Shown in pieces: positions 6,330 to 23,986 of a stretch of DNA of 24,000 nucleotides. The notes under the pieces were generated by a model. That model was not told the origin of the DNA. It did no database searches and saw only the letters and a list, made by a program, of their open reading frames with translations. The stretch lies in assembly GCF_020687385.1 (NCBI RefSeq), contig NZ_JAJEQM010000001.1, positions 259,110-283,109 on the forward strand, given 5' to 3'. Positions within the stretch are counted from its first letter, which is position 1, and each line of letters begins with the position of its first letter. Both the position numbers and the translations under genes were made by a program. The DNA is from Hominilimicola fabiformis (GTDB taxonomy: Bacteria; Bacillota; Clostridia; UBA1381).

Positions 6330-6584
6330 ATGTATATATTGGTTGGATCGGTCACTACTGCGACAAGACTTAAAAAAGTTGCAGAAAAAATTATCGGTTT
6401 TCCGGCATATGTTGTGCATACGCCGTCCGCTTTAAATCAAGGTGGCTGTTCCTATTCCGTGCGTGTTGATGACCGTGCACTTAATGAAATCAGAAAGATA
6501 GCCGGCGATAATGAAATTCCGATTAGACGGATTTATATAGAAAGAACAGTAAACGGGGAGCGTGTTTATGATGTTGTATCTTGA
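6330..6584 (+). CDS. DUF3343-like small protein (putative Se/S carrier-like)
   Basis: 84-aa ORF from ATG 6330, with GAGGGGAG SD 8 nt upstream; the track start at 6312 is a TTG extension. Small alpha/beta protein with a central GGC motif (NQGGCSY). Its 3' end overlaps the start of the downstream desulfurase-like gene. Family assignment is from memory of the fold pattern and gene context. Confidence 0.6.
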   Translation: MYILVGSVTTATRLKKVAEKIIGFPAYVVHTPSALNQGGCSYSVRVDDRALNEIRKIAGDNEIPIRRIYIERTVNGERVYDVVS

Positions 6585-7692
6585 TAACGCGGCAACGACT
6601 TTGAAAAAGCCTTTGTCGGTGTATGCGACGCTTTTTAAGAGTACCTTGTTTTCGGGCGGAAACGCGGGACGGGGAGGGCATAAGATGAGTATGGACGCAG
6701 TGCGTGCTATTGTAGATACACAAGATTTGATTGCACAGCTTTTTAATATAAAAAAAGCCGAAAATGTTGTTTTTACGCAAAATGCGACGTACGCTCTGAA
6801 CACTGCCATTCTCGGCACAATGTCAAACGGAGGACATATTGTCGTTACGGAGATGGATCATAACAGCGTTTTAAGACCTGCTTGTTTGTCGGGGAATTAC
6901 ACCGTTGTAAGAGCGGATAAGAGCGGATATGTACACGCGGAAGATGTTGAAAAGGCTGTGAGGAAGGATACAAAGCTGATTGTTTGTACCCACGCGTCAA
7001 ACGTGTGCGGAACAATTCAGCCGGTGTATGCAATAGGAAGAATAGCGAAAAAGCATAAAATACCGTTTTTAATGGACGTTGCACAAACGGCAGGGAGCAT
7101 AAAGATTGATGCGGAAAAAATGAATGCGGATATGATAGCTTTTTCCGGACATAAAGGTCTTATGGGACCGCTTGGAACAGGCGGATTGTATGTGAAAAGT
7201 CCGGAAGAACTTGCACCGCTTGTGACGGGCGGAACGGGAAGTAATTCGGAGAGCGTTTCACAGCCGGAATTTATGCCCGATAAGTTTCACAGCGGTACGA
7301 TGAATACACCTGCAATTAAGGCTTTGGGGGCAGGGGTTAAGTATGTTATGAAATACGGCGTTGATGTAATCGGTAAGCATGAAAAAATGCTTTCCGAAAA
7401 ATTTAAAGAAAATTTGATGAATATGGATAATGTTACGATATACGGGAATGATAACAGTGTTGCGACTGTCGCGTTTAATGTGGCAAATCTCGGAAGTGAA
7501 GAAGTTTTTGAAATGCTTAAGGGCAAAGCGGCGGTAAGAGCGGGTTATCATTGTGCACCGCTCGCACACAGAGCGATAGGTACATCGGATAGGGGAGCGG
7601 TCAGAGCGTCGTTCGGAGTTTTTAATTCAAAAAATGATGTGGCGAAAATGACTGATTATGTGTATAAAATCAGTAAAAATGTGTCGGGATAG
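6568..7692 (+). CDS. aminotransferase class V-fold PLP-dependent enzyme (cysteine desulfurase-like)
   Basis: N-terminal YLDNAATT motif and PLP-lysine motif FSGHKGLMGP. GGGGAG SD lies 7 nt before ATG 6568; the track start GTG 6562 is also possible. Confidence 0.9.
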   Translation: MMLYLDNAATTLKKPLSVYATLFKSTLFSGGNAGRGGHKMSMDAVRAIVDTQDLIAQLFNIKKAENVVFTQNATYALNTAILGTMSNGGHIVVTEMDHNSVLRPACLSGNYTVVRADKSGYVHAEDVEKAVRKDTKLIVCTHASNVCGTIQPVYAIGRIAKKHKIPFLMDVAQTAGSIKIDAEKMNADMIAFSGHKGLMGPLGTGGLYVKSPEELAPLVTGGTGSNSESVSQPEFMPDKFHSGTMNTPAIKALGAGVKYVMKYGVDVIGKHEKMLSEKFKENLMNMDNVTIYGNDNSVATVAFNVANLGSEEVFEMLKGKAAVRAGYHCAPLAHRAIGTSDRGAVRASFGVFNSKNDVAKMTDYVYKISKNVSG

Positions 7693-7822: not shown

Positions 7823-7896
<74 letters not shown>

Positions 7897-7902
7897 ATAT
7901 AT

Positions 7903-7979
7903 GTGTCTGTAGCTCAGTTGGATAGAGCAATTGCCTTCTAAGCAATGGGCCGGGGGTTCGAATCCCTCCAGACACGCCA
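7903..7979 (+). tRNA. tRNA-Arg (anticodon UCU), CCA encoded
   Basis: Acceptor gtgtctg/cagacac, anticodon stem attgc/gcaat with loop cTTCTaa, T-loop GGTTCGAATCC. Confidence 0.93.
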
Positions 7980-8037
7980 ATTTCTTTTTGGAATTCAAAA
8001 AGAGTTTAGTGTGCGTAGATAACTACCGCCATCATAT

Positions 8038-8115
8038 GGTGGGTATAGTTCAGCTGGTTAGAGCGTCAGTTTGTGGCACTGAATGTCGTGGGTTCGAATC
8101 CCACTACCCACCCCA
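8038..8115 (+). tRNA. tRNA-His (anticodon GUG), with extra 5' G(-1), CCA encoded
   Basis: Acceptor gtgggta/tacccac preceded by an extra G opposite discriminator C. Anticodon stem tcagt/actga with loop tTGTGgc. Confidence 0.92.
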
Positions 8116-8132
8116 TTTTAATTTTAATATAC

Positions 8133-8208
8133 AGGGATATAGCCAAGTCGGTAAGGCACCAGATTTTGATTCTGGCATGCGTAGGTTCGAGTCCTGCTAT
8201 CCCTGCCA
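8133..8208 (+). tRNA. tRNA-Gln (anticodon UUG), CCA encoded
   Basis: Acceptor agggata/tatccct, anticodon stem ccaga/tctgg with loop tTTTGat. Confidence 0.9.
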
Positions 8209-8284
8209 GGGCCATTAGCTCAGTCGGCAGAGCACTTGACTTTTAATCAAGTTGTCCGGGGTTCGAATCTCCGATGGCTCACCA
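8209..8284 (+). tRNA. tRNA-Lys (anticodon UUU), CCA encoded
   Basis: Acceptor gggccat/atggctc, anticodon stem cttga/tcaag with loop cTTTTaa. It directly abuts tRNA-Gln. Confidence 0.92.
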
Positions 8285-8288
8285 AGTG

Positions 8289-8321
8289 AAACCGCTTAAA
8301 CGTATGTTTAAGCGGTTTTTT
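8289..8321 (+). terminator. Rho-independent terminator of the tRNA operon
   Basis: 13-bp stem aaaccgcttaaac/gtttaagcggttt, loop gtat, followed by a T-run. Confidence 0.85.
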
Positions 8322-8535
8322 ACTGCTTATTATATTTTGAGGCTGTATATTACATGTATATTACCGCTATATTTTGTTTATGGCTCGAATGGATTCGCTT
8401 GTGAAAATGTTGTAATTTGTGTTGGAGTGATGATGTTGATGCGATATGATTGAAATAGTTTGTGTAACAGTGAATCACTCTTATCAAACCTTGAATGTTT
8501 TTCGGAAAAAGTGTTGGAAAACAAAAAATATAAAT

Positions 8536-8575
8536 AAAAAAGTGTTGAAAACCTTAGGTTTTCAACACTTTTTTA
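8536..8575 (-). terminator. Bidirectional terminator downstream of tRNA-Trp
   Basis: 14-bp stem aagtgttgaaaacc/ggttttcaacactt, loop tta, with A-run and T-run flanks. Confidence 0.8.
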
Positions 8576-8577
8576 TT

Positions 8578-8653
8578 TGGCAGGGGTACAAGGACTCGAA
8601 CCTTGGGCACGCGGTTTTGGAGACCGCTGCTCTACCAACTGAGCTACACCCCT
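8578..8653 (-). tRNA. tRNA-Trp (anticodon CCA), CCA end encoded
   Basis: The reverse complement reads aggggtgtagctcagttggtagagcagcggtCTCCAAAaccgc...ggttcgagtccttgtacccctgcca. Anticodon loop is cTCCAaa. Confidence 0.92.
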
Positions 8654-9183: not shown

Positions 9184-9346
9184 TTTAAAACCTCACAATA
9201 ATATTGATTACATTTGAATTATAACACAATAGTAATATAAGTCAAGTGTAGGGTAATTTTATTTTTACAGTGAAATATATTGACAAAATAATACAATATA
9301 GGATAAAATATTTATGAAATAAATAAAATTGGTGATGAAGAAAATT

Positions 9347-10063
9347 ATGAAATTAAATATAGCGATTTGCGATGACAACAAATTAGTATTGGAAAATGAG
9401 AAAGCGCTAATTGAAGAAACGTTGAAAGAGATGGGAATACCGTACAAGATGGACAAGTATCAAAATCCCGAAAATCTTATTAAAAATGCTTGGCAATACG
9501 ATTTAGTATTTTTAGATGTGGAAATGGATGAAGTCAACGGAATTGTGGCGGCGGAAAGTATTCACAATATCAACAAGGAATGTTTGCTGTTTTTCGTAAC
9601 CAACCACGAGGTTTATATGGACTATGCTATGAACGAGTATGCATTCAGATTTTGGGTAAAGCCTATGTCGAAAGAAAAACTGAAATTTGGGTTAGAGTCG
9701 GCGTTGAAACGGTTGGAGAACAACAACAAATGCATAGAATTCAACACCGACAGAAATGTTGTGAATATACCGATAAATAAAATTATTTTTATATGTGCCG
9801 AGAACAAAAAAACGACTATTGTTACGGTAGATGAACAATTTGTGGTAGACAGACCGTATAAAGCGGTCAAAGATATGATAAATTCATATTTCTTCTACGA
9901 GTCACACGCAAGTTACTATGTGAACTTAAATTATGTGAAAGCATATTCGCCGTCACACGTAAAATGCGGAATAGGAAATCATGAATATGAAATTCATATG
10001 TCGCGAAGAAAATATACGAAATTTAATAAATATTTTATAGATTGGATGGGTGAACAAAAATGA
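9347..10063 (+). CDS. agrA: LytTR-family two-component response regulator (AgrA-like)
   Basis: Receiver domain with DD (ICDDN), phospho-acceptor Asp (FLDVEMD), Thr (FVTNH) and Lys-Pro (VKP). C-terminal LytTR domain (IPINKIIFICAENKKT...HMSRRKY). Start is uncertain: TTG 9329, ATG 9335 or ATG 9347. The stop overlaps the kinase start (ATGA). Confidence 0.9.
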   Translation: MKLNIAICDDNKLVLENEKALIEETLKEMGIPYKMDKYQNPENLIKNAWQYDLVFLDVEMDEVNGIVAAESIHNINKECLLFFVTNHEVYMDYAMNEYAFRFWVKPMSKEKLKFGLESALKRLENNNKCIEFNTDRNVVNIPINKIIFICAENKKTTIVTVDEQFVVDRPYKAVKDMINSYFFYESHASYYVNLNYVKAYSPSHVKCGIGNHEYEIHMSRRKYTKFNKYFIDWMGEQK

Positions 10064-11340
10064 GAATAGATGCAGGATTGATAATTGGTGTTGCACTGGA
10101 ATTTATAATAATGTTGTATTTTGCAAATTCGACGTTACAACCGAAAAAGAATTATTATATAAGCTCTGCGATGTGCTTTGTGGGGTATTTGATTGTATTT
10201 GCTTTTTCGCTGTTTAATCAATTATTTGTTAATGTGGGTGTTTTTATAGTAATTAATTTGCTGATTTTTAATTTGGGTTATAGAATAAATTTTAAAACCT
10301 CAATATTTCAAACAATAATGTTGTTGGTGTTTATGTTTTTGGGTGAAATAATAGTAGCGTTTACTATGAAAATGGGATTAGACAAGAAAAGCTTTTTAGA
10401 AGTCACGCCTCAACAGTCAATGATTATAACGGTGGCGGGAAAATTGATATACTTTTTATCGGTGTTTTTTATGAAAAGAGTAGACAGAAAAAAGGTGATT
10501 TCTTCAGAAAAATCTTCTCTGTTGTTAGCGGTAGTTCCTATAATGACTTTTGTGTGTTTAATTATGGTTTATCCGCTGAATATTGACAAGCGTATATTTT
10601 CTTCGGTTTGTATTATCGCAATAACCTTAAATGTTGTTACTTTTTCGATAAACGAATTTATGCTTGCAAAAAACAGAAGAATAAGAATACTTGAAGATGA
10701 AAATTATAAAAACTGTATTGAATTAGAAGAATACAAGACGTTAAATGAAAAATATGAACACAGCAGAATAATGAATCATGATTTTAGAGAACATCTAAAT
10801 GTTTTGAAAACTTTAATTTCAGAAGATATTCAAAAAGCACAAGAATATGTAGGAAAGATTGAAAAAGAGTGTGAGGATTCAAAAATAGAAAAATACAGTG
10901 ACAACAATATTCTTAATATATTACTTATTCGCAAGAAAAAAGAGTGTGAAGAAAACGGAATTAAGTTAAACATAACCTCAACTAACCCGAAACTTGATTT
11001 TATAGACGGAATGGACACGGTTGCTATATTTTCTAATTTGATTAACAATGCAATAGAGGCTTGCTCAGACTCGGCAAGAAAAGATATTTTTATTGATTTA
11101 TATACAGTTAATAACGCATTTAGTGTTATTAAAGTTGAAAATTATGCTGATAAAGAGCCGATAGTTGTAGAAGGTATGTTGAGAAGTGGGAAAGATGACG
11201 GTAATTCTCACGGAATCGGTATTAAGAGTATAAATAATTCATTAAGCAAATATGACGGTAAAATGAGTTGGTCGTATGACAAAGCTAAAGGTATGTTTAG
11301 AACCGTTATTTCTATAAATAATTCACAAATTAACATTTAA
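10060..11340 (+). CDS. agrC: AgrC-like sensor histidine kinase (GHKL ATPase, HPK10 type)
   Basis: About 200-aa N-terminal polytopic membrane sensor (6-7 hydrophobic helices). H-box NHDFREHLNVL, N-box FSNLINNAIEA, G-box SHGIGIKSI. Translationally coupled to the LytTR regulator. Confidence 0.9.
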   Translation: MRIDAGLIIGVALEFIIMLYFANSTLQPKKNYYISSAMCFVGYLIVFAFSLFNQLFVNVGVFIVINLLIFNLGYRINFKTSIFQTIMLLVFMFLGEIIVAFTMKMGLDKKSFLEVTPQQSMIITVAGKLIYFLSVFFMKRVDRKKVISSEKSSLLLAVVPIMTFVCLIMVYPLNIDKRIFSSVCIIAITLNVVTFSINEFMLAKNRRIRILEDENYKNCIELEEYKTLNEKYEHSRIMNHDFREHLNVLKTLISEDIQKAQEYVGKIEKECEDSKIEKYSDNNILNILLIRKKKECEENGIKLNITSTNPKLDFIDGMDTVAIFSNLINNAIEACSDSARKDIFIDLYTVNNAFSVIKVENYADKEPIVVEGMLRSGKDDGNSHGIGIKSINNSLSKYDGKMSWSYDKAKGMFRTVISINNSQINI

Positions 11341-11348
11341 AATTTATA

Positions 11349-11377
11349 TTGACATTGTTGACATTTAATGTTATAAT
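11349..11377 (+). promoter_or_regulatory. consensus sigma-A promoter for agrD-agrB
   Basis: TTGACA (11349-11354), 17-nt spacer, TATAAT (11372-11377). A second TTGACA lies at 11358-11363, giving a 9-bp-phased direct repeat TTGACATTG/TTGACATTT. ACATT pentamers occur at 11333, 11352 and 11361. Confidence 0.7.
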
Positions 11378-11427
11378 GTGATTGTAGGAATATAGGTAAA
11401 CGTAAAGATAAGAAAGGATGTTTTATT

Positions 11428-11583
11428 ATGAAAAAGTTCCTAAACAAAGTAGTTCCAACACTAATTAAAATTGTGCCTGTTTGCTCAGCATTGATGCTTG
11501 TAATTAACAGTAATTCAACATCAACAATTTGGAATGGACAGCCGGAAGCACCAAAAGGACTTAAGAAGTATCGTAAGTTCTAA
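11428..11583 (+). CDS. agrD: AgrD-type cyclic autoinducing peptide precursor (51 aa; not in the supplied ORF track)
   Basis: Translation: MKKFLNKVVPTLIKIVPVCSALMLVINSNSTSTIWNGQPEAPKGLKKYRKF. It has a basic/amphipathic N-terminal leader, a short core, and the conserved charged tail QPExPKxL seen in clostridial AgrD. AAAGGA SD lies 9 nt upstream. It ends 2 nt before agrB. Confidence 0.8.
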   Translation: MKKFLNKVVPTLIKIVPVCSALMLVINSNSTSTIWNGQPEAPKGLKKYRKF

Positions 11584-11585
11584 TT

Positions 11586-12182
11586 ATGTTTCGTAAATTT
11601 TCGGAATGGGCTGTGGCATATGCCATTAGGTTAGGTTACATACCTAAGGAAGAACAGGAAGAATATACTTACGGACTTGACCTTGTAATGAGTGTTATTG
11701 TCAGTGATTTGACAATGCTTATAATAGGTATAATAATGAAAATGATACCGCAAGTTATCGTTTTCGGATTTATGTACAAGTTTATTCGTAAATATGTGGG
11801 CGGATACCATTGTGAATCATCTTTGACGTGTTTAATGTCGTCAAGTACGATGTGCATATGCGTTCTGCTTGCTATTAAATATCTTCCGTATAACCTTGGC
11901 GTATACATAGTCGCAACCGTTTTATCTATTGGGGTACTCTTTGCAATTTCGCCAATCGAGGCGATAAACAAACCTTTGGAAGAAATCGAAGTTAAGGTTT
12001 TCGGAAAAAGGGCGAGAATTGTACTTTGTATTACACTTGTAATATTTGGTGTGATTTGCGCGTTCGGTTTGACGGAAATGGTAAAAACAATGGCAATAAG
12101 CGTCGTTGATATTTTACTTTTTGCGGTTATGGGTAAGATAAAATTGTTGAACTACAAAAGGAAAAAAATTGAACAGAATTAA
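11586..12182 (+). CDS. agrB: accessory gene regulator B (AgrB) family membrane peptidase
   Basis: 198-aa polytopic membrane ORF with an AgrB-type N-terminus and the conserved RKYVGGYHCES region (catalytic His/Cys context). It is immediately downstream of agrD. Confidence 0.9.
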   Translation: MFRKFSEWAVAYAIRLGYIPKEEQEEYTYGLDLVMSVIVSDLTMLIIGIIMKMIPQVIVFGFMYKFIRKYVGGYHCESSLTCLMSSSTMCICVLLAIKYLPYNLGVYIVATVLSIGVLFAISPIEAINKPLEEIEVKVFGKRARIVLCITLVIFGVICAFGLTEMVKTMAISVVDILLFAVMGKIKLLNYKRKKIEQN

Positions 12183-12186
12183 CTCG

Positions 12187-12222
12187 AAAAATGTGATATT
12201 TTTACAAATATCACATTTTTTT
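12187..12222 (+). terminator. Rho-independent terminator after agrB
   Basis: Stem aaaatgtgatattt/aaatatcacatttt, followed by T7. Confidence 0.8.
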
Positions 12223-12432
12223 GCTACCAAGTTTCCGGATTAAGCTACCACTTAGTCGTAAACTGTTTACTTTTTTTTATTTTTGAGATAATATTACTAC
12301 ATCAGATTCATTAAAATTTTATATATTTCAATCGAAAAAACATCGGTTTTTGCATTTCTCCAAAGCAAACGATGTTTTTTTATTTTTACAGGGATATGTT
12401 GGAATAACTCGATTAATTTATTTTAGAATGGA

Positions 12433-12461
12433 TTGACGGTAAAATGACTGTGTGATATAAT
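12433..12461 (+). promoter_or_regulatory. sigma-A-type promoter for the GNAT-cysE unit
   Basis: TTGACG (12433-12438), 17-nt spacer, TATAAT (12456-12461). Confidence 0.65.
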
Positions 12462-12495
12462 TTTAGTAGTTTATGAGATTAGAGGAGAAATGAAA

Positions 12496-13050
12496 ATGAG
12501 TTATATAAGAAATGTTGAATTATCCGACGCGGAAGTGTTGGTTGAAATATACCGTCCGTATGTCGAAAATACAACAATATCGTTTGAATATGAAACTCCG
12601 TCTGTAGACGAGTTTAGAAGTCGTATTGAAAATATTTCAAAAAAGTATCCTTACATTGTTATGGTTGAGGACGATGAAATTGTCGGTTATGCATATGCGG
12701 GAACGTTCAAAGGACGTAAGGCGTATGACTGGAGCGTTGAAACGACTATATATGTAAGAGAGGACAAAAAAGGTGGCGGATACGGCAAGAAGTTGTATCT
12801 TGAACTTGAAGAAAGATTGAAAAAACAAAACATTCTTAATATGTATGCTTGTATTGCGTATACGGACAATGAAGATGGGCATTTGACAAACAACAGTATG
12901 CAGTTCCACGAGCATATGGGTTTCAGACTTATCGGCACATTCAAAAAGTGCGGTTACAAGTTCGACAAGTGGTACGATATGATTTGGATGGAGAAATTTA
13001 TCGGCGAACATAAGGTTAATCCCGACGCGGTGACAAAACCTGAAATTTAG
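12496..13050 (+). CDS. GNAT family N-acetyltransferase (phosphinothricin / methionine-sulfoximine acetyltransferase-like)
   Basis: PAT-like N-terminus (IRNVELSDAEVLVEIYRPYVENTTISFEYETPSVDEF) and AcCoA-binding motif KKGGGYGKKLYLELEERL. ATG 12496 lies 8 nt after GGAG; the track start at 12490 is too close to the SD. Confidence 0.88.
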   Translation: MSYIRNVELSDAEVLVEIYRPYVENTTISFEYETPSVDEFRSRIENISKKYPYIVMVEDDEIVGYAYAGTFKGRKAYDWSVETTIYVREDKKGGGYGKKLYLELEERLKKQNILNMYACIAYTDNEDGHLTNNSMQFHEHMGFRLIGTFKKCGYKFDKWYDMIWMEKFIGEHKVNPDAVTKPEI

Positions 13051-13120: not shown

Positions 13121-14047
13121 ATGGCGAATAAAGTAGAAGATTTAGTCAATGTGATTTTAGACAGCTACAATGAATGTGACATTACAGCGAGAATTGACGA
13201 AGAGAATATGCTTAACAAGGATATTCTTATAGAAATTATAGATGAAATAAGAAAAGTGCTTTTTCCGGGCTTTTTTGACAACAACAAGGTCAGAAGTGAA
13301 TACTTAAAGTTTCTTGTCGGTGAAAGACTGGAATTTATACAGTATCATTTGAAGAAACAGGTATCAAACGCGTTTGCAAATCAAGATGTATGCAGAGAGT
13401 GCAGTAAGGCACAGGCAGAGGAAAAAGCGGAAGAAGTTGTTTTTGAATTTTTAAAGAGAATACCGAAAATAAGAGAATACTTAAATACAGACATTCAAGC
13501 TGCGTATGACGGTGACCCTGCGGCATACAGCACAGATGAAATAATTTTCTGTTATCCGGGAGTGTTTGCAATCACTGTTTACAGAATTGCTCACGAATTG
13601 TGGCTTTTGGGCGTGCCTATGATTCCGAGAATAATGACGGAATATGCTCACAGCACAACAGGTATAGATATTCACCCGGGTGCGACTGTCGGCAAATATT
13701 TCTTTATAGACCACGGTACAGGTATTGTTATAGGTGAAACTACCGAAATCGGCGATAATGTAAAAATATATCAAGGCGTTACTTTAGGTGCACTTTCGAC
13801 AAGAAAAGGTCAGCAGTTAAAGGGTGTTAAACGTCATCCGACTATCAGTGACAACGTTACGATATATTCGGGTACGACTATTCTTGGCGGTGAAACGGTT
13901 GTCGGTAAGGGTACGACTATCGGCGGTAATGCGTTTATCGTTAATTCCGTTTCGGAGGGTATGAAAGTCAGCGTGAAAAATCCCGAACTTGAGTACAGTG
14001 TCGGAAATGCGTCTATGAAGGACGGTTATTGGGATTGGTGTATATAA
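13121..14047 (+). CDS. cysE: serine O-acetyltransferase (long form)
   Basis: Left-handed beta-helix hexapeptide region [41 protein letters not shown], preceded by the SAT N-terminal helical domain. AAGGAGG SD upstream. Confidence 0.9.
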
Positions 14048-14056
14048 AAAATTTGC

Positions 14057-14124
14057 GAGCCTGTCGACAGCTCCAAAAATCACATCTTGCGATGTAATTT
14101 TTGAGTATTTTCAAAGAAAAAATC
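14057..14124 (-). repeat. Copy A of a ~65-bp dispersed intergenic repeat (inverted relative to copy B at 18365)
   Basis: The reverse complement of 14062-14124 matches 18365-18427 at 57 of 63 positions in a hand alignment without gaps. It contains the small palindromes gagcctgtcgacagctc and acatcttgcgatgt. Confidence 0.8.
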
Positions 14125-14161
14125 ATAAAGTTCCTCCGAAGTCGAAACTTTAGATTTTAAG

Positions 14162-14197
14162 TCATTTCTGCCGCACATGTCGCCAGAAATGATTTTT
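14162..14197 (+). terminator. terminator-like hairpin in the cysE-metY spacer
   Basis: 9-bp stem tcatttctg/cagaaatga with a 13-nt loop, followed by T5. Confidence 0.5.
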
Positions 14198-14305
14198 AAT
14201 GAGGCTGCACCTCAAACTTCCCCAAGAATACAGTAGACAAAACCATAACGGTTTTGTCAGCAATCTGAACATATACAATATGATTTTTGATAATATTTCA
14301 GAGGT

Positions 14306-14351
14306 AAATATCCGCATAAAATCGAAGAATTTTAGCGGATATTTATTTTTT
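14306..14351 (+). terminator. strong terminator-like hairpin just upstream of the metY promoter
   Basis: About 16-bp stem aaatatccgc(a)taaaat/attttagcggatattt with one bulge, loop cgaaga, followed by ATTTTTT. Confidence 0.65.
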
Positions 14352-14374
14352 ATAAAAAATTTTTCAAAAAGGTA

Positions 14375-14402
14375 TTGACAAATCGGAAAAATGTGCTATA
14401 AT
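14375..14402 (+). promoter_or_regulatory. consensus sigma-A promoter of the leader-metY-cysK unit
   Basis: TTGACA (14375-14380), 16-nt spacer, TGC-TATAAT extended -10 (14394-14402). Confidence 0.75.
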
Positions 14403-14450
14403 ACAAATCATAGTAATTCCATAGGAAAAGAGAAGAAAGGAAAATGCGAT

Positions 14451-14513
14451 ATGATAACACAAAATCTAAAGTATGTACAGAACGGACGAATGTGTTGCTG
14501 TTGCTGTAACTAA
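14451..14513 (+). CDS. putative Cys-rich leader peptide (20 aa, MITQNLKYVQNGRMCCCCCN)
   Basis: ATG at 14451 lies about 9 nt after AAAGGA. Five consecutive Cys codons TGT TGC TGT TGC TGT occupy 14493-14507, with the stop at 14511-14513. It sits between the predicted promoter and metY and is not in the supplied ORF track. Confidence 0.55.
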   Translation: MITQNLKYVQNGRMCCCCCN

Positions 14514-14574
14514 TTTAATAAGAAAGAACAATACACATAAATATAAAAATTGAGAAAGAAAGAGGTACAAAATT

Positions 14575-15864
14575 ATGTCAAATAAGAATTGGAGATTTGA
14601 AACAAAGCAATTACACGTTGGTCAGGAACAAGCAGATCCTGTTACAGATTCAAGAGCTGTTCCGATTTATGCATCAACATCATTCGTATTCCACAACTCA
14701 CAGCACGCAGCTGACCGTTTCGGTTTGAGAGATGCAGGTAACATCTACGGCAGACTTACAAACCCTACAGAAGATATTTTTGAACAGAGAATAGCAGCCC
14801 TTGAAGGCGGTGTTGCAGCATTGGCAGTTGCATCGGGTGCGGCAGCTCTTGCTTATACATTCCAAACACTTGCTAAGCAAGGCGATCACATCGTAGCCGC
14901 AAAGACAATTTACGGCGGAACATACAACTATCTTGAACATACATTCCCTGAATTCGGTGTTACAACAACATTCGTTGACCCTGAAGTTGACGGTGCATTT
15001 GAAGCAGCTATTCAGGATAACACAAAGGCAATCTTCATTGAAACACTTGGTAACCCAAATTCAAACCTAATTGATATTGAAGAAATTGCAAAGATTGCTC
15101 ACGCACATAACATTCCGCTTGTAGTTGACTCAACATTCGCTACACCTTATCTTGTAAGACCAATCGAATACGGTGCAGACATCGTTGTTCACAGTGCAAC
15201 TAAGTTTATCGGCGGTCACGGTACTGCAATCGGTGGTGTAATCGTTGACAGCGGTAACTTTGACTGGGCTAAGTCGGGTAAGTTCCCTCACCTTGTAGAG
15301 CCTAACGCATCATATCACGGTATCAGCTTTGCAAATGATGTAGGAGCTGCCGCATTCGTAACATATATCAGAGCTATCCTGCTTCGTGACACAGGTGCTA
15401 CACTTTCACCGTTCCACGCATTCATCTTCTTACAGGGTCTTGAAACTTTGTCACTAAGAGTTGAACGTCACGTTGAAAACGCTCTAAAGATTGTTGATTA
15501 CCTAAACAAGCATCCAAAGGTAGAGGCTGTTCATCATCCGTCACTACCTACAGAGCCAAGCCACGAACTATACAAGAAGTATCTTCCAAACGGCGGCGGA
15601 AGTATCTTTACATTTGAAATCAAGGGCGGAGTTGAAGAGGCTCACAAGTTTATCGATAACCTTGAAATTTTCTCGCTTCTTGCAAATGTTGCAGACTCTA
15701 AGTCACTTGTAATTCACCCGGCTACAACTACTCATTCACAGTGCAATGAACAGGAACTTGCAGAACAGGGTATTAAGCCAAATACAATAAGACTATCAAT
15801 CGGTACAGAAAATATTGATGACCTTATTGCAGCTCTTGACGACGCATTCAACGCCGTTGACTAA
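14575..15864 (+). CDS. metY: O-acetylhomoserine aminocarboxypropyltransferase / sulfhydrylase
   Basis: 429-aa ORF of the Cys/Met-metabolism PLP family. PLP-lysine motif HSATKFIGGHG, with typical N-terminus (FETKQLHVGQE) and C-terminus (IRLSIGTENIDDLI). AGAGG SD upstream. Confidence 0.95.
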   Translation: MSNKNWRFETKQLHVGQEQADPVTDSRAVPIYASTSFVFHNSQHAADRFGLRDAGNIYGRLTNPTEDIFEQRIAALEGGVAALAVASGAAALAYTFQTLAKQGDHIVAAKTIYGGTYNYLEHTFPEFGVTTTFVDPEVDGAFEAAIQDNTKAIFIETLGNPNSNLIDIEEIAKIAHAHNIPLVVDSTFATPYLVRPIEYGADIVVHSATKFIGGHGTAIGGVIVDSGNFDWAKSGKFPHLVEPNASYHGISFANDVGAAAFVTYIRAILLRDTGATLSPFHAFIFLQGLETLSLRVERHVENALKIVDYLNKHPKVEAVHHPSLPTEPSHELYKKYLPNGGGSIFTFEIKGGVEEAHKFIDNLEIFSLLANVADSKSLVIHPATTTHSQCNEQELAEQGIKPNTIRLSIGTENIDDLIAALDDAFNAVD

Positions 15865-15906
15865 TTTTAAGTAAATTGTGTTAAAAGTCAGAAAGAAGGA
15901 ATTAAA

Positions 15907-16839
15907 ATGTCAAAGATATATCAGAAAATTACAGATCTTATCGGTGGTACACCGCTATTGGAACTTGCAAACTATGAAAAGAAGAATAACCTTGAAGCAA
16001 CCGTTCTTGGTAAGCTTGAATACTTTAACCCTGCCGGTTCGGTAAAAGACAGAATCGCAAAGGCAATGGTTGATGAGGCTGAACAAGAGGGTAAGTTAAA
16101 GGAAGGTTCTGTTATCATCGAGCCAACATCAGGTAATACAGGTATCGGTCTTGCGTCGGTTGCAGCCGCAAGAGGTTATAAAATTATAATCACAATGCCT
16201 GAAACAATGAGTATTGAAAGACGTAATCTATTAAAAGCATACGGTGCCGAACTTGTTTTGACAGACGGTGCAAAGGGTATGAAGGGTGCTATCGAAAAGG
16301 CTAAGGAACTTGCTGAAACAACAGAAAACAGCTTTATCCCAAGCCAGTTCACAAACCCTGCAAACCCTGCTTATCACAGAGCAACAACAGGTCCTGAAAT
16401 CTGGGCAGATACAGACGGTAAAGTTGATATATTTGTTGCCGGCGTAGGTACAGGCGGTACAGTTACCGGTGTAGGACAGTATCTAAAGTCACAAAACCCT
16501 GACGTTAAGGTTGTTGCAGTTGAGCCTGCAGGCTCACCGGTATTGTCACAAGGCAAAGCAGGTGCACACAAAATTCAAGGTATCGGTGCAGGTTTCGTTC
16601 CTGAAACTCTTGATACAAAGGTTTATGACGAAATCATTACTGTTGAAAATGAGGACGCATTCAAGACCGGCAGAGATATTGCCCGCAGTGAAGGTGTACT
16701 TGTGGGTATTTCATCAGGTGCGGCTGTTTGGGCGGCTACAGAGCTTGCCAAACGCCCTGAAAACAAGGGTAAGACAATCGTAGCTCTTTTGCCTGATACA
16801 GGTGAAAGATACTTGTCAACTCCTATGTTCGCTGAATAA
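15907..16839 (+). CDS. cysK: cysteine synthase A (O-acetylserine sulfhydrylase)
   Basis: 310-aa ORF. PLP-lysine motif [29 protein letters not shown], and C-terminal [11 protein letters not shown]. Confidence 0.96.
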
Positions 16840-16868
16840 TTCAGTATTTAAAATTTGTTCACTATACC

Positions 16869-16897
16869 AAAGATGGCATTTATATGCCATCTTTTTT
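16869..16897 (+). terminator. Rho-independent terminator after cysK
   Basis: Stem agatggcat/atgccatct, 4-nt loop, followed by T6. Confidence 0.85.
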
Positions 16898-17046
16898 GTG
16901 TACGGTTTTTCGGACATTGTAGTTGTTATAATGTAATCATAATAAAGCTAAATTGTCGCTAAATTGTCAAAGTGAAGTTTGGGTTTTGAGGGTAAAAAAA
17001 CGAGAAATTTCCTAAAATCACCTTGACAAAAACGGAGGTAAATATT

Positions 17047-17130
17047 ATGGTTATAGTGGGAACAATACTTATAAGTGTAGGAGCGTCAATACTTTTTGTA
17101 TTAAAGGTTAATTCGGTAAAGGATATATAA
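17047..17130 (+). CDS. possible 27-aa hydrophobic micropeptide (MVIVGTILISVGASILFVLKVNSVKDI)
   Basis: GGAGG (17034-17038) lies 8 nt upstream of the ATG. It has a single predicted transmembrane helix and sits 40 nt upstream of the ThrE-like gene. It is not in the ORF track and there is no homology evidence. Confidence 0.35.
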   Translation: MVIVGTILISVGASILFVLKVNSVKDI

Positions 17131-17170
17131 GTTTTGGCGTTGTCTGCATATTGTGTGAGGAGATGAGAAT

Positions 17171-17929
17171 ATGCAGATAAATGAACTTGTGACATTTGCG
17201 GCGGATGTCGGCAGAGGTCTGCTTGAAAGCGGTGCGGAAACGAGTCGTGTCGAAGATACGGTTGAGAGGATAATACGGCACTTTTATGACGGTAAAAGTG
17301 AGGTTTTGGTCGTAATGACAGGACTGTTTGTCACTGTCGGCGATGTTACAAAAACGGTCAGAGTTCGCAGACGGACTATAAACCTTGATAAAGTATCGAA
17401 AATTAATATGATGTCACGAGATATTGCTGATGATAAAATCGACTTTGAAGAAGCTTTAAAACGCTTTGAATATGTAATGGCACAGAAACCTTATCCGTTA
17501 TGGGTTAAAACTGTTGCGGTAGCGTTTTGCTGCGGATTTTTTACGTTGTTGTTTGGCGGTAATGCGTTTGACGGACTTAATTCGTTTGTGGTCGGTGCGG
17601 TTATCAATGTTTTTATATGGTTTTTGAGAAAACATCACACGGCGGAGTTTATTATAACATTTTCGGGCGGAGTTGTTATTGCGTTGCTGATATTACTCTT
17701 TTATGCAATAGGTTTGGGAAAAAATATTAATCCTATGATAACGGGAGCTATTATGCCGCTTGTACCCGGTTTGGCAATAACTAATGCAATTCGTGATATT
17801 ATTGCCGGAGATTACCTTTCGGGCGGTGCGAGATTGTTTGATGCGATAGTCGTGGCGATTGCACTTGCCACAGGTGCGGGCAGTGTTATGTACATTTTCG
17901 GTCATATGACGGGAGGTGTTATGGGATGA
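17171..17929 (+). CDS. threonine/serine exporter family protein (ThrE / DUF1212 part)
   Basis: 252-aa ORF. The N-terminal cytoplasmic region (GRGLLESGAETSRVEDTVERI) followed by five hydrophobic helices is typical of DUF1212. GAGGAG SD upstream. Confidence 0.85.
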   Translation: MQINELVTFAADVGRGLLESGAETSRVEDTVERIIRHFYDGKSEVLVVMTGLFVTVGDVTKTVRVRRRTINLDKVSKINMMSRDIADDKIDFEEALKRFEYVMAQKPYPLWVKTVAVAFCCGFFTLLFGGNAFDGLNSFVVGAVINVFIWFLRKHHTAEFIITFSGGVVIALLILLFYAIGLGKNINPMITGAIMPLVPGLAITNAIRDIIAGDYLSGGARLFDAIVVAIALATGAGSVMYIFGHMTGGVMG

Positions 17930-21347: not shown

Positions 21348-22748
<1,401 letters not shown>

Positions 22749-23048: not shown

Positions 23049-23072
23049 TTCTTGTTTATTCTCTATTTTAAA

Positions 23073-23264
23073 ATGTGCGGCCAATGATCGCCCCTACATC
23101 GTTAATAGGCGACCAATGATCGCCCCTACGTCGTTAATGTGCGACCGATGATCGCCCCTACATCGTTAATGTGCGACCGATGATCGCCTCTACGTTGTTA
23201 ATGTGCGACCGATGATCATCCCTGCGTCGTTAATGGGGGACCGATGATCGCCTCTACATCGTTC
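23073..23264. repeat. Tandem repeat, 6 x 32 bp (consensus atgtgcgaccgatgatcgcccctacatcgtta)
   Basis: Six head-to-tail units at 23073, 23105, 23137, 23169, 23201 and 23233, with 0-4 mismatches each to the consensus. There are no spacers between units. It ends 15 nt from the DUF421 stop codon. Confidence 0.9.
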
Positions 23265-23278
23265 GTAACAACTCATCA

Positions 23279-23986
23279 TTACTGAAACGGGTCATTCTTT
23301 GGTGAATCGTCTGTTTTTTTATAAACCGACAATGTATTATTACCGTCGCAAAGTGCGATGAACACATCTTTCACATTGCCGATTTTTTGCTTTTGCAATT
23401 CATTTTCAAGCCACTTTTTATTATTGCCGCTGAGTTTTAAATTTTCCTCCATAATATGTCCGTCAAGAACAACTGTAAAGGACAGCTTTTCTTGTTTTGC
23501 TGCGATGTTCATATCCTGCACATTAGCAGGGCGTGCCTGTACTTTGGGCAAAAACGATATTTTACCGTTTTGTTCAAGTATTGCGGTATCGACATCATCT
23601 AATGTGAAAAAACCGTTTATTCTGCATTGTACAAGGAAATCGTTTATATCTATTTTTGAAGTCTTAAAATTTTTCTGATATATTTTACCGCTTTGCATTA
23701 AAACTATTGACCGTCCCGTAAAGAAACGTCTTAGTTTAATATTTTTTTCGGTAAGATATGATATAAACCACATAATGACGGTATAAATTACTATCGCAGT
23801 AAGGGGATAGTAAAACTTGCCGTCAAGCGAAGTCGCCATTTCGGCGGCGATAGAGCCGATAGTTATACCGTTTATATAGTCGAACATACTCAATTCCGAC
23901 ATTTGCTTGTTGCCGATTATTTTTGTTGAGAAAAACAATGCGATGATTGAGCCGACTGATGTAAGTATAATTTTTATAAATTCCAT
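23279..23986 (-). CDS. DUF421 domain-containing membrane protein (YetF-like)
   Basis: 235-aa ORF. The N-terminal membrane helices (GNKQMSELSMFDYINGITIGSIAAEMA) and C-terminal soluble domain are typical of DUF421/YetF-family proteins. GGAG SD upstream. Confidence 0.85.
   Translation of the reverse strand: MEFIKIILTSVGSIIALFFSTKIIGNKQMSELSMFDYINGITIGSIAAEMATSLDGKFYYPLTAIVIYTVIMWFISYLTEKNIKLRRFFTGRSIVLMQSGKIYQKNFKTSKIDINDFLVQCRINGFFTLDDVDTAILEQNGKISFLPKVQARPANVQDMNIAAKQEKLSFTVVLDGHIMEENLKLSGNNKKWLENELQKQKIGNVKDVFIALCDGNNTLSVYKKTDDSPKNDPFQ

Follow-up and report, generated by a model that had tools for sequence, protein, structure and literature searches.

The metY-cysK locus and its leader ORF

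The stretch of DNA analysed here, hereafter the window, comprises 24,000 nucleotides of Hominilimicola fabiformis (contig NZ_JAJEQM010000001.1, positions 259,110 to 283,109) with a G+C content of 39%. Our subject is a short open reading frame (sORF) in the leader of its metY-cysK operon, in which an Arg-Met pair written CGA-ATG is directly followed by five Cys codons (Table 1). The initial annotation of this DNA had described the promoter, the Shine-Dalgarno (SD) sequence, the ORF with its alternating Cys codons and the metY and cysK genes downstream, and all of this agrees with the sequence. The metY promoter matches the consensus at 12 of 12 positions, being the top and the only 12/12 promoter-like site across 13800-17200, and homologous promoters are found at L017, L006, L001 and L061 (L-numbers are the labels of the metY loci fetched for comparison). 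Transcription is predicted to start at ~14409, which would leave a 42-nt 5′ untranslated region (UTR) ahead of the leader ATG. The (TGY)5 run is present only once in the 24 kb and had 0 matches in 100 dinucleotide shuffles. The spacer that separates the leader stop from metY contains ACACAT (14533-14538), the complement of the core ATGTGT. Two human-gut metagenome contigs bear the same leader in front of a 100% identical MetY, which makes this a bacterium of the human gut, and the relatives of its MetY indicate Clostridia.

An in-frame longer start of the leader ORF, ATG 14391, falls within the promoter. In another frame, an overlapping ORF (MRYDNTKSKVCTERTNVLLLL, 14444-14509) ends in VLLLL, as the Cys run becomes a Leu run when it is read out of frame. 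This ORF is probably untranslated, its SD spacing being just 2 nt and the family described below conserving the other frame.

Table 1 Features of the metY-cysK locus and their coordinates in the window
Feature	Position	Strand	Remarks
Hairpin AAATATCCGC...GCGGATATTT	14306-14352	+	10-bp stem, then T-run; read from sequence
metY promoter	14375-14402	+	TTGACA 14375-14380, 16-nt spacer, TG-extended TATAAT 14397-14402
Operator-like imperfect palindrome CATAGTAATTCCATAGG	14409-14425	strand-neutral	Located at the predicted transcription start
Leader-ORF SD AAAGGA	14436-14441	+	9 nt 5′ of ATG 14451
Leader ORF, MITQNLKYVQNGRMCCCCCN then stop	14451-14513	+	20 codons; ends RMCCCCCN
Local hairpin	14476-14508	+	Cys codons 2-5 (3′ arm) paired with UACAGAACGG; -10.4 kcal/mol
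Core CGA-ATG (Arg13-Met14)	14487-14492	+	With first Cys codon CGAATGTGT, 14487-14495
Five Cys codons in a row	14493-14507	+	TGT TGC TGT TGC TGT; presumed pause codons
A-rich spacer	14514-14574	+	61 nt, 59% A, mostly unpaired; leader stop to metY ATG
metY SD AAGAGG	14560-14565	+	Inside the A-rich spacer
metY	14575-15864	+	O-acetylhomoserine sulfhydrylase / homocysteine synthase; TIGR01326, 625.7 bits
cysK	15907-16839	+	Cysteine synthase A, same operon as metY; TIGR01139, 472.7 bits
Intrinsic terminator	16869-16894	+	Closes the metY-cysK unit; 11-bp stem, then T-run

A family of leader ORFs upstream of metY

For comparison, 160 metY loci from GTDB genomes and metagenomes were used, plus four reached via the products of the sORFs. 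At about 30 loci, no two of them identical, metY is preceded by a short ORF whose stop lies 20-130 nt 5′ of the gene. They come from Ruminococcus, Eubacterium and Lachnospiraceae metagenome-assembled genomes (MAGs), from Oscillospiraceae, Faecalibacterium, Butyricicoccus and Anaerotruncus, from Christensenellales, from Anaerovibrio lipolyticus DSM 3074 (Negativicutes) and from one Acholeplasmatales MAG. The sORF always lies ahead of metY while the flanking genes vary, cysK being found 3′ of metY in 12 family loci. The window has the traits of this family: an SD-led sORF stopping shortly before the metY ATG, an in-frame CGA-ATG-Cys and a palindromic promoter. A comparison of orthologues had been set beforehand in the initial annotation, with a short ORF and its Cys run as the features to be looked for. 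The positional conservation of the sORF was borne out at ~30 loci, whereas the Cys run varies from 0 to 5 codons and CGA-AUG is the constant element.

The motif is read in one frame. An SD-led ATG frame, with at least 8 codons upstream and no stop between, covers it in 28 of 32 leaders, against 1/32 and 0/32 for the other two frames. CGAATGTGY occurs ~40 times in the metY-upstream windows versus ~10 times across the other 1.9 Mb fetched, where matches outside metY leaders stay at background level only. Cys codons make up 9.9% of the family sORFs, compared with 1.4% in the window genes, a 7-fold difference. A peptide-profile search found metY-linked leaders only, in three subfamilies; this restriction arises because sORFs of fewer than 30 aa are not called as genes. 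Leaders of the Faecalibacterium type precede monocistronic metY loci and are present on hundreds of contigs, where they are annotated as “hypothetical protein” (WP_256466444.1, WP_279220762.1).

The leader peptides range from 14 to 44 aa in length and vary in their tail and in their Cys count, with the Arg-Met (RM) pair most often at codons 17-18. A large subfamily follows the pattern [LV]xR[AHQ]N[FY]R[FCN]GRM(C), of which the window peptide is a short divergent form (..QNGRMCCCCCN) without the NFR part. The window and L017 (77% MetY identity) have ..RMCCCCC-x-stop in common, with unrelated first 12-15 codons. Both of these Cys5 leaders precede metY-cysK, and family-wide the link between Cys number and cysK is weak. 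The leader of L005 looks degenerate, with Ser after RM and an ORF continuing into metY. At ~1344 in L012, a second CGAATGTGT (“..NIQRMC”, then stop) was noticed 190 nt 5′ of the main leader and also 5′ of the promoter, which may be the remnant of a duplicated leader or may be due to chance.

The CGA-AUG core and the Cys codons

Across the aligned leader peptides the Arg-Met pair alone is invariant, and Cys comes next in most of them. The pair is written with CGA in 42 of 43 cases, and CGA accounts for 56 of all 115 Arg codons in 32 leaders, compared with 7/219 Arg codons in the window genes and ~1.3% in the metY genes of the family loci. Synonymous variation is found right beside the core (Gly as GGA, GGC or GGG; Asn as AAC or AAT; Phe as TTC or TTT; other Arg as CGT, CGC, CGA or AGA). 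There has thus been enough time for divergence, and the constraint on CGA acts on the codon or on the RNA. Two or three CGA-AUG units occur per leader in L006, L084 and the Faecalibacterium type. In addition, a second kind of unit has CGA before Cys, either as CGA-TGT-ATG (R-C-M; L003, L018, L034 and L092) or as CGA-TGT-TGC/TAT (L031, L042, L087 and L089). There are eight such CGA-Cys pairs, whereas Arg-Cys at the NFR-C position uses CGT or CGC instead.

Directly after RM, the number of Cys codons ranges from five in the window and L017, through two in L012, L018, L022, L030 and L038 and one in many leaders, to zero. In the last group RM is followed by Pro and then Cys codons (L011, L031), by Ser (L005, L092), by Thr (the L116 type) or by a UGA stop (L026, 2883-2939; L032, 2871-2927). 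A UGA stop also follows CGA-AUG in the third RM unit of L020 and L098. This UGA is one substitution away from UGY, and termination would fall where other leaders would await Cys-tRNA; its use as a selenocysteine or recoding site in L026 and L032 was considered, with no evidence in its favour. The L116 type (L116, 868-981; proteins P0044, P0045, P0048 and P0055), with the peptide MKDLFELLNRHNFRNGRMTSEQGHKVMGPHAFGSxDR on more than 100 contigs, keeps CGA-AUG, and its C-terminal tail is conserved too.

Two further explanations for the core were examined and set aside. If translation began internally, on the RM-unit AUG, an SD would be needed, and across the family none is consistently present 5-10 nt upstream. 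A conserved local structure at CGAAUG, such as a GAAU loop, is seen only in a few leaders, the motif being looped out in some of them and base-paired within a stem elsewhere.

A putative operator at the metY promoter

The statement of the initial annotation that no CymR mechanism is present at this leader is probably wrong. Palindromes of the CCTA-N9-TAGG type are found in 24 of 30 leaders, over the -35 box (CCTATTGACAnAGTAGG) or just 3′ of the -10 box and often at both. The window copy has one mismatch and aligns with the boxes of L017, L006, L001 and L061, forming a conserved promoter-operator block. Rrf2-family genes adjoin metY in 19 loci, among them L109 (3607-4011, apparently in the same operon), L040, L003 and L036, where they lie 3′ of metY, and L017, L018, L011, L124, L031, L013 and L007, where they lie 5′ of it. 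The proteins encoded score between CymR and IscR, under both equivalog cut-offs. Within the 24-kb window no Rrf2 gene was found. The operator half-site ATAGGAA presumably resembles the B. subtilis CymR box. The window palindrome is a probable candidate site for an Rrf2-family (CymR/IscR-like) repressor, and transcriptional repression by a CymR-like protein, with the leader peptide as a second layer of control, appears likely.

Other regulatory elements were observed in front of metY as well. Palindromes of the TATAGTTTnAAACTATA type, ~100-150 nt 5′ of metY, replace the CCTA-N9-TAGG operator in L002, L005, L007, L009, L028, L035, L083 and L085; we take them to resemble the streptococcal MET box of the LysR-type MtaR/MetR. 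L005 has such a box together with its degenerate RM leader. When the leaders of 38 related loci were searched against Rfam, none had a match except L037 and L041 (other Clostridia), which carry an S-box riboswitch, a known sensor of Met supply, at the same position before metY. Since S-box or MET-box-like sites occupy the same position elsewhere, the metY leader appears to be a site of regulatory turnover. In the window itself, Rfam gave no credible match for 13900-14700 even at E≤10, and tRNAs only for the whole window at the gathering score, in line with the earlier view that S-box and T-box elements are absent from this leader.

RNA structure and output elements

No terminator was found in the window leader by the terminator scan, mutually exclusive terminator/antiterminator hairpins are absent, and the leader folds no better than its shuffles (z=+0.34). 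The earlier description of a leader without a terminator/antiterminator pair and with an A-rich, unstructured spacer is thus confirmed. The metY SD is unpaired to a similar degree when free (0.59) and with an imposed stall (0.57), and the pause region matches the metY ribosome-binding site no better than expected by chance (p=0.19-0.28); on these two grounds, SD sequestration was rejected for the window. The local hairpin over the Cys codons has pair probabilities of ~0.9 and a z of -1.3, which is not significant; it lacks a U-tract and has no conserved counterpart in L017. The Rho route, which had been mentioned as a possibility, is not favoured, the spacer being C-poor (C/G 0.53) and not rut-like. 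The spacers of L030 and L084 have more C than G, and these two loci might use Rho.

In several relatives, recognisable output elements are found. In L022, L027, L024, L124 and L012 the pause region is complementary to the metY SD or start, with duplex energies at p≤0.02 versus shuffles. At the metY initiation region, AUGUGUACC is complementary to GGUACACAU in L027, extended to ~16 bp, GUACCUCU to AGAGGUA in L024, and UGUGUUGUUCC to GGAAUAACACA in L022 and L038. In L042, L087 and L089 a pairing of CUUUCGAUGUUA with UAACAUCGAAAG was read from the sequences. Under the imposed footprint of a ribosome whose P site holds RM, the SD becomes more accessible by 0.13-0.43 in eight leaders (L012, L017, L022, L026, L038, L087, L089 and L124). 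Leaders of the Faecalibacterium type have a conserved hairpin with compensatory changes, which begins at the G of the first RM and closes at the C of the second, and after it a terminator, likewise with compensatory changes. The 5′ strand of the hairpin (CCGGGCA) is complementary to the 5′ arm of the terminator, with 86% of cells paired versus 26-41% in slid controls. L023 has a clear terminator/antiterminator. The SD sequestration and the terminator/antiterminator predicted for these relatives are ordinary attenuation outputs. The suggestion that the mechanism is not the textbook one fails for these relatives; it is the window alone that has no recognisable output element.

Other features of the window

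Upstream of the metY promoter lies a cysE-like gene (13121-14047) for a serine O-acetyltransferase-like protein of 308 aa with a long N-terminal extension, whose product scores under the cysE cut-off and over the EpsC cut-off; immediately 5′ of it is a gene for an N-acetyltransferase of the ArsN1/phosphinothricin type (12490-13050). From the end of the cysE-like gene to the metY promoter there are 330 nt (14047-14375), with three hairpins, at 14057-14073, at 14236-14258 (9-bp stem without a T-run) and at 14306-14352. The last of these was passed over by the terminator scan, as its loop exceeds the 8-nt limit of the scan; from its stem and T-run, it is likely to be the terminator of the cysE-like gene, insulating the metY promoter.

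Further upstream, an agr-like quorum-sensing module (9329-12182) is composed of a LytTR response regulator (9329-10063), a histidine kinase (10060-11340) and an AgrB-like protein (11586-12182), with no obvious ORF for an AgrD-type precursor in 12182-12490. A cluster of tRNA genes at 7823-8653 comprises Gly(TCC)-Arg(TCT)-His-Gln-Lys (+ strand) and Trp (- strand). Just 5′ of it is a class-V aminotransferase gene (cysteine desulfurase-like, 6562-7692) that has no Rrf2 gene before it. Near the other end of the window, six 32-nt units (consensus AATGTGCGACCGATGATCGCCCCTACATCGTT, 85% matches) form a tandem array at 23072-23263, between a glutamate-dehydrogenase-like gene (21354-22748, + strand) and a convergent ORF (23279-23986, - strand). 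As this array is without spacers, it is not CRISPR-like.

Discussion

From its constant position, its reading frame and its codon bias, the sORF of the metY-cysK operon is very probably a cis-regulatory leader peptide. On balance, we think it rather probable that it acts in cis as a ribosome-pausing sensor of Cys, and perhaps Met, supply that is layered on repressor control. Ribosomes would slow or stop at CGA-AUG-(UGY)n when charged tRNA-Cys, possibly also tRNA-Met, is scarce, and the parked ribosome would lead to higher expression of metY-cysK. The sensing of more than one amino acid has a precedent in the thr and ilv leaders. In the window, the pause site would have been expanded to five Cys codons, and this post-initiation control would act on top of Rrf2-family repression at the transcription-start operator. 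The output would differ among the members of the family. In the relatives with an anti-SD segment, the parked ribosome would sit on the stretch that, left free, would pair with the metY ribosome-binding site, and in the Faecalibacterium type a pause at the second RM-Cys would prevent the hairpin from closing and so let the antiterminator form. For the window, our leading guess is that the stalled ribosome protects and stabilises the mRNA or acts locally on metY initiation. A ribosome stalled near the 5′ end stabilises mRNA without a switch structure in the case of ermC in Bacillus, and by analogy such stabilisation would be the only established route fitting the structure-free window.

What the CGA codon contributes may be kinetic. 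CGA is read by tRNA-Arg(ICG) via I:A wobble (PMC3711424, PMC10454642), and in yeast a CGA in the P site impairs the decoding of the next codon (bioRxiv 10.1101/755652). We favour the view that the I:A wobble would sensitise the decoding of the following AUG and UGY codons.

Several observations weigh against a pausing sensor of this kind. L026 and the L116 type are without any Cys codon in the whole peptide; as Cys-less members exist, Cys sensing is not a universal function of the family. L001 (86% MetY identity) and L061 (79%) retain the promoter and the operator without an sORF, which is therefore dispensable in some lineages. In B. subtilis, the expression of a lacZ reporter with four CGA codons was not reduced (PMC10454642), a result that weakens the idea of CGA as a slow codon. 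As the window leader lacks a terminator, SD sequestration and a better-than-shuffle fold, there is no visible way in the window to transmit a stall. Among the relatives, the opening of the SD by an imposed ribosome is heterogeneous, family-wide weak (p=0.048) and no better than in an early-stall control, so the effect is claimed for a subset only. Nor does the expected sign of the regulation come out in every relative: the antiterminator strand of L023 would be masked by a ribosome whose A site is at Cys, giving the opposite sign, and the expected sign would fit only if the pause falls one or two codons earlier; the geometry of L116 gives no clear sign.

Some of these observations would suit an arrest peptide, in which the nascent chain (...N-F/Y-R-x-G-R-M, in the window ...Q-N-G-R-M) stalls the ribosome on Met, S-adenosylmethionine (SAM), Cys or an O-acetyl precursor and the Cys codons are secondary. 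Ahead of the pause site, residues -6 to 0 show amino-acid conservation with synonymous codons, RM, placed most often at codons 17-18, would keep the entire peptide within the exit tunnel, Cys-less members exist (L026 and the L116 type), and a stop or Pro can come after RM as at known arrest sites; moreover, stall-dependent repression would agree with the geometries of L023 and L116. Yet the writing of Arg as CGA indicates a constraint at the codon or RNA level, not purely at that of the peptide, and the NFR part is missing from the window peptide. In the anti-SD members a stall would turn metY on, whereas an end-product ligand calls for the opposite sign. The leader peptide matches no known arrest motif, and the motifs of the leaders are printed nowhere in the literature searched. 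We consider an arrest peptide unlikely. About as unlikely, or marginally more so, is an evolutionary remnant without output, with the Rrf2-type repressor accounting for the whole sulfur response. No output structure is present in the window, L001 and L061 do with promoter and operator only, and L005 shows what a degenerate leader looks like. In the window, however, the leader is intact in all its parts, from SD and ATG through the open frame to CGA-ATG and an unbroken run of five Cys codons, and RM with Cys5 is retained in L017 despite a diverged peptide, where a neutral (TGY)5 should decay fast.

The strict use of CGA could also be explained if CGAAUG(UG) (CGAAUGUG) were an RNA or DNA site for an RNA-binding protein, a small RNA (sRNA) or a nuclease, the frame being incidental or secondary. 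The conservation is at nucleotide level, with CGA not swapped for its synonyms, and the 2-3 repeats in L006, L084 and the Faecalibacterium type recall multi-site RNA-binding attenuation proteins. Against this, the motif lies in a constant frame of an SD-led ORF, the flanking amino acids are conserved with synonymous variation, and there is neither a conserved local structure nor a candidate binding partner, all of which makes a recognition site quite improbable. We give very little credence to a released, functional Cys5 micropeptide, engaged for example in metal or redox chemistry, which the initial annotation had put forward as its alternative. The Cys-rich C-terminus itself speaks for it, but R-M alone is invariant while length, tail and Cys count vary freely, L026 and L032 stop right after RM, and the sORF always has the same gene behind it, in otherwise varying neighbourhoods.

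Returning to the pausing sensor, a broader claim can be put forward tentatively, namely that the chain of CGA-AUG, Cys and ...NFRxG represents an undescribed and widespread class of sulfur-amino-acid-sensing leaders, with three or more outputs, that stands in functionally for the S-box before metY. We see this as possible, at somewhat less than an even chance. In such a class the I:A-wobble codon, or the nascent peptide, would sensitise the ribosome to the supply of Met-tRNA and Cys-tRNA, the outputs would include SD sequestration, an intrinsic terminator and the structure-free mode of the window, and the hosts would be gut Firmicutes including Faecalibacterium. In the literature searched, which left most subscription journals outside, we found none of the motifs of these leaders and, for Firmicutes, neither a leader peptide tied to metY nor any Met/Cys leader peptide described.

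The nearest known systems are the polycysteine leaderless sORFs of mycobacteria, which are Cys-responsive attenuators of a “Cys ribulon” (Canestrari et al. 2020, bioRxiv 10.1101/834739). For Ms5788A of M. smegmatis, pairing of the pause region with the downstream ribosome-binding site was shown experimentally, and transcription initiation of Ms5788 was reported not to be regulated (bioRxiv 10.1101/834739). The likeness lies in two or more consecutive Cys codons in an sORF before Cys or sulfur genes, in the lack of an obligatory terminator and, for several relatives of the window, in the pairing of pause region and ribosome-binding site as in Ms5788A. Unlike these sORFs, that of the window is SD-led behind a 5′ UTR and not leaderless, belongs to Firmicutes and not to Actinobacteria, and has no sequestering duplex while having a predicted repressor operator; the core of its family is CGA-AUG with a variable number of Cys codons and not the Cys run as such. 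Leader peptides with Cys runs were also predicted, without terminators, before cys/cbs operons of Mycobacterium, P. acnes and B. longum (Seliverstov et al. 2005, PMC1262725), and the two-Cys upstream ORF uORFC-8-2 precedes cysS of Rhodobacterales with a clear terminator stem (PMC8632094). In both cases the Cys codons lie near the stop of an ORF upstream of Cys-related genes, and the actinobacterial leaders share the lack of a terminator with the window; however, taxa, downstream genes and peptide sequences are unrelated, and uORFC-8-2 has its terminator stem.

The classical attenuators (trpL, hisL, pheL, leuL, thrL, ilv) similarly place codons for the amino acid of the pathway near the leader stop, and the relatives of the Faecalibacterium type, having a terminator with a candidate antiterminator, come close to them. 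The window differs from them in having no terminator/antiterminator, and they have neither an invariant non-cognate rare codon, here CGA, nor conserved peptide residues. In the translational attenuation of ermC and cat, a ribosome stalled on the leader frees the downstream SD, as is predicted for relatives of the window, yet the stall is triggered there by antibiotics acting with the nascent chain. At the level of transcription, the CymR (Rrf2) regulon of Bacillus, Staphylococcus and Clostridium (PMC3828012) represses cysteine-synthesis genes at a palindrome overlapping the promoter. The palindrome at the promoter or transcription start of this Cys gene operon, conserved in orthologous promoters, resembles that arrangement, whereas the Rrf2 proteins adjacent to metY fall under the CymR cut-off and the window has no Rrf2 gene. 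The window element belongs to neither the mycobacterial nor the classical class of attenuators, and it would work like both. Leader peptides with Cys codons are already known; it is the invariant rare CGA before AUG that is unexpected.

The Met and Cys genes of Firmicutes are, by the textbook, under the control of T-boxes, S-boxes and protein regulators, leader-peptide attenuation is regarded as rare in them, and in B. subtilis transcription outruns translation. If our reading is true, a ribosome-based sensor of sulfur supply would be at work in abundant gut commensals (Lachnospiraceae, Oscillospiraceae, Negativicutes and Acholeplasmatales), and a function would be given to sORFs that are now at most annotated as hypothetical proteins. 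The strict use of CGA before AUG offers a synonymous swap by which it could be tested whether a codon pair tunes an amino-acid sensor. The metY-cysK leader of the window, as a sensor kept without a recognisable RNA switch, would make the transmission of a stall without structure open to experiment.

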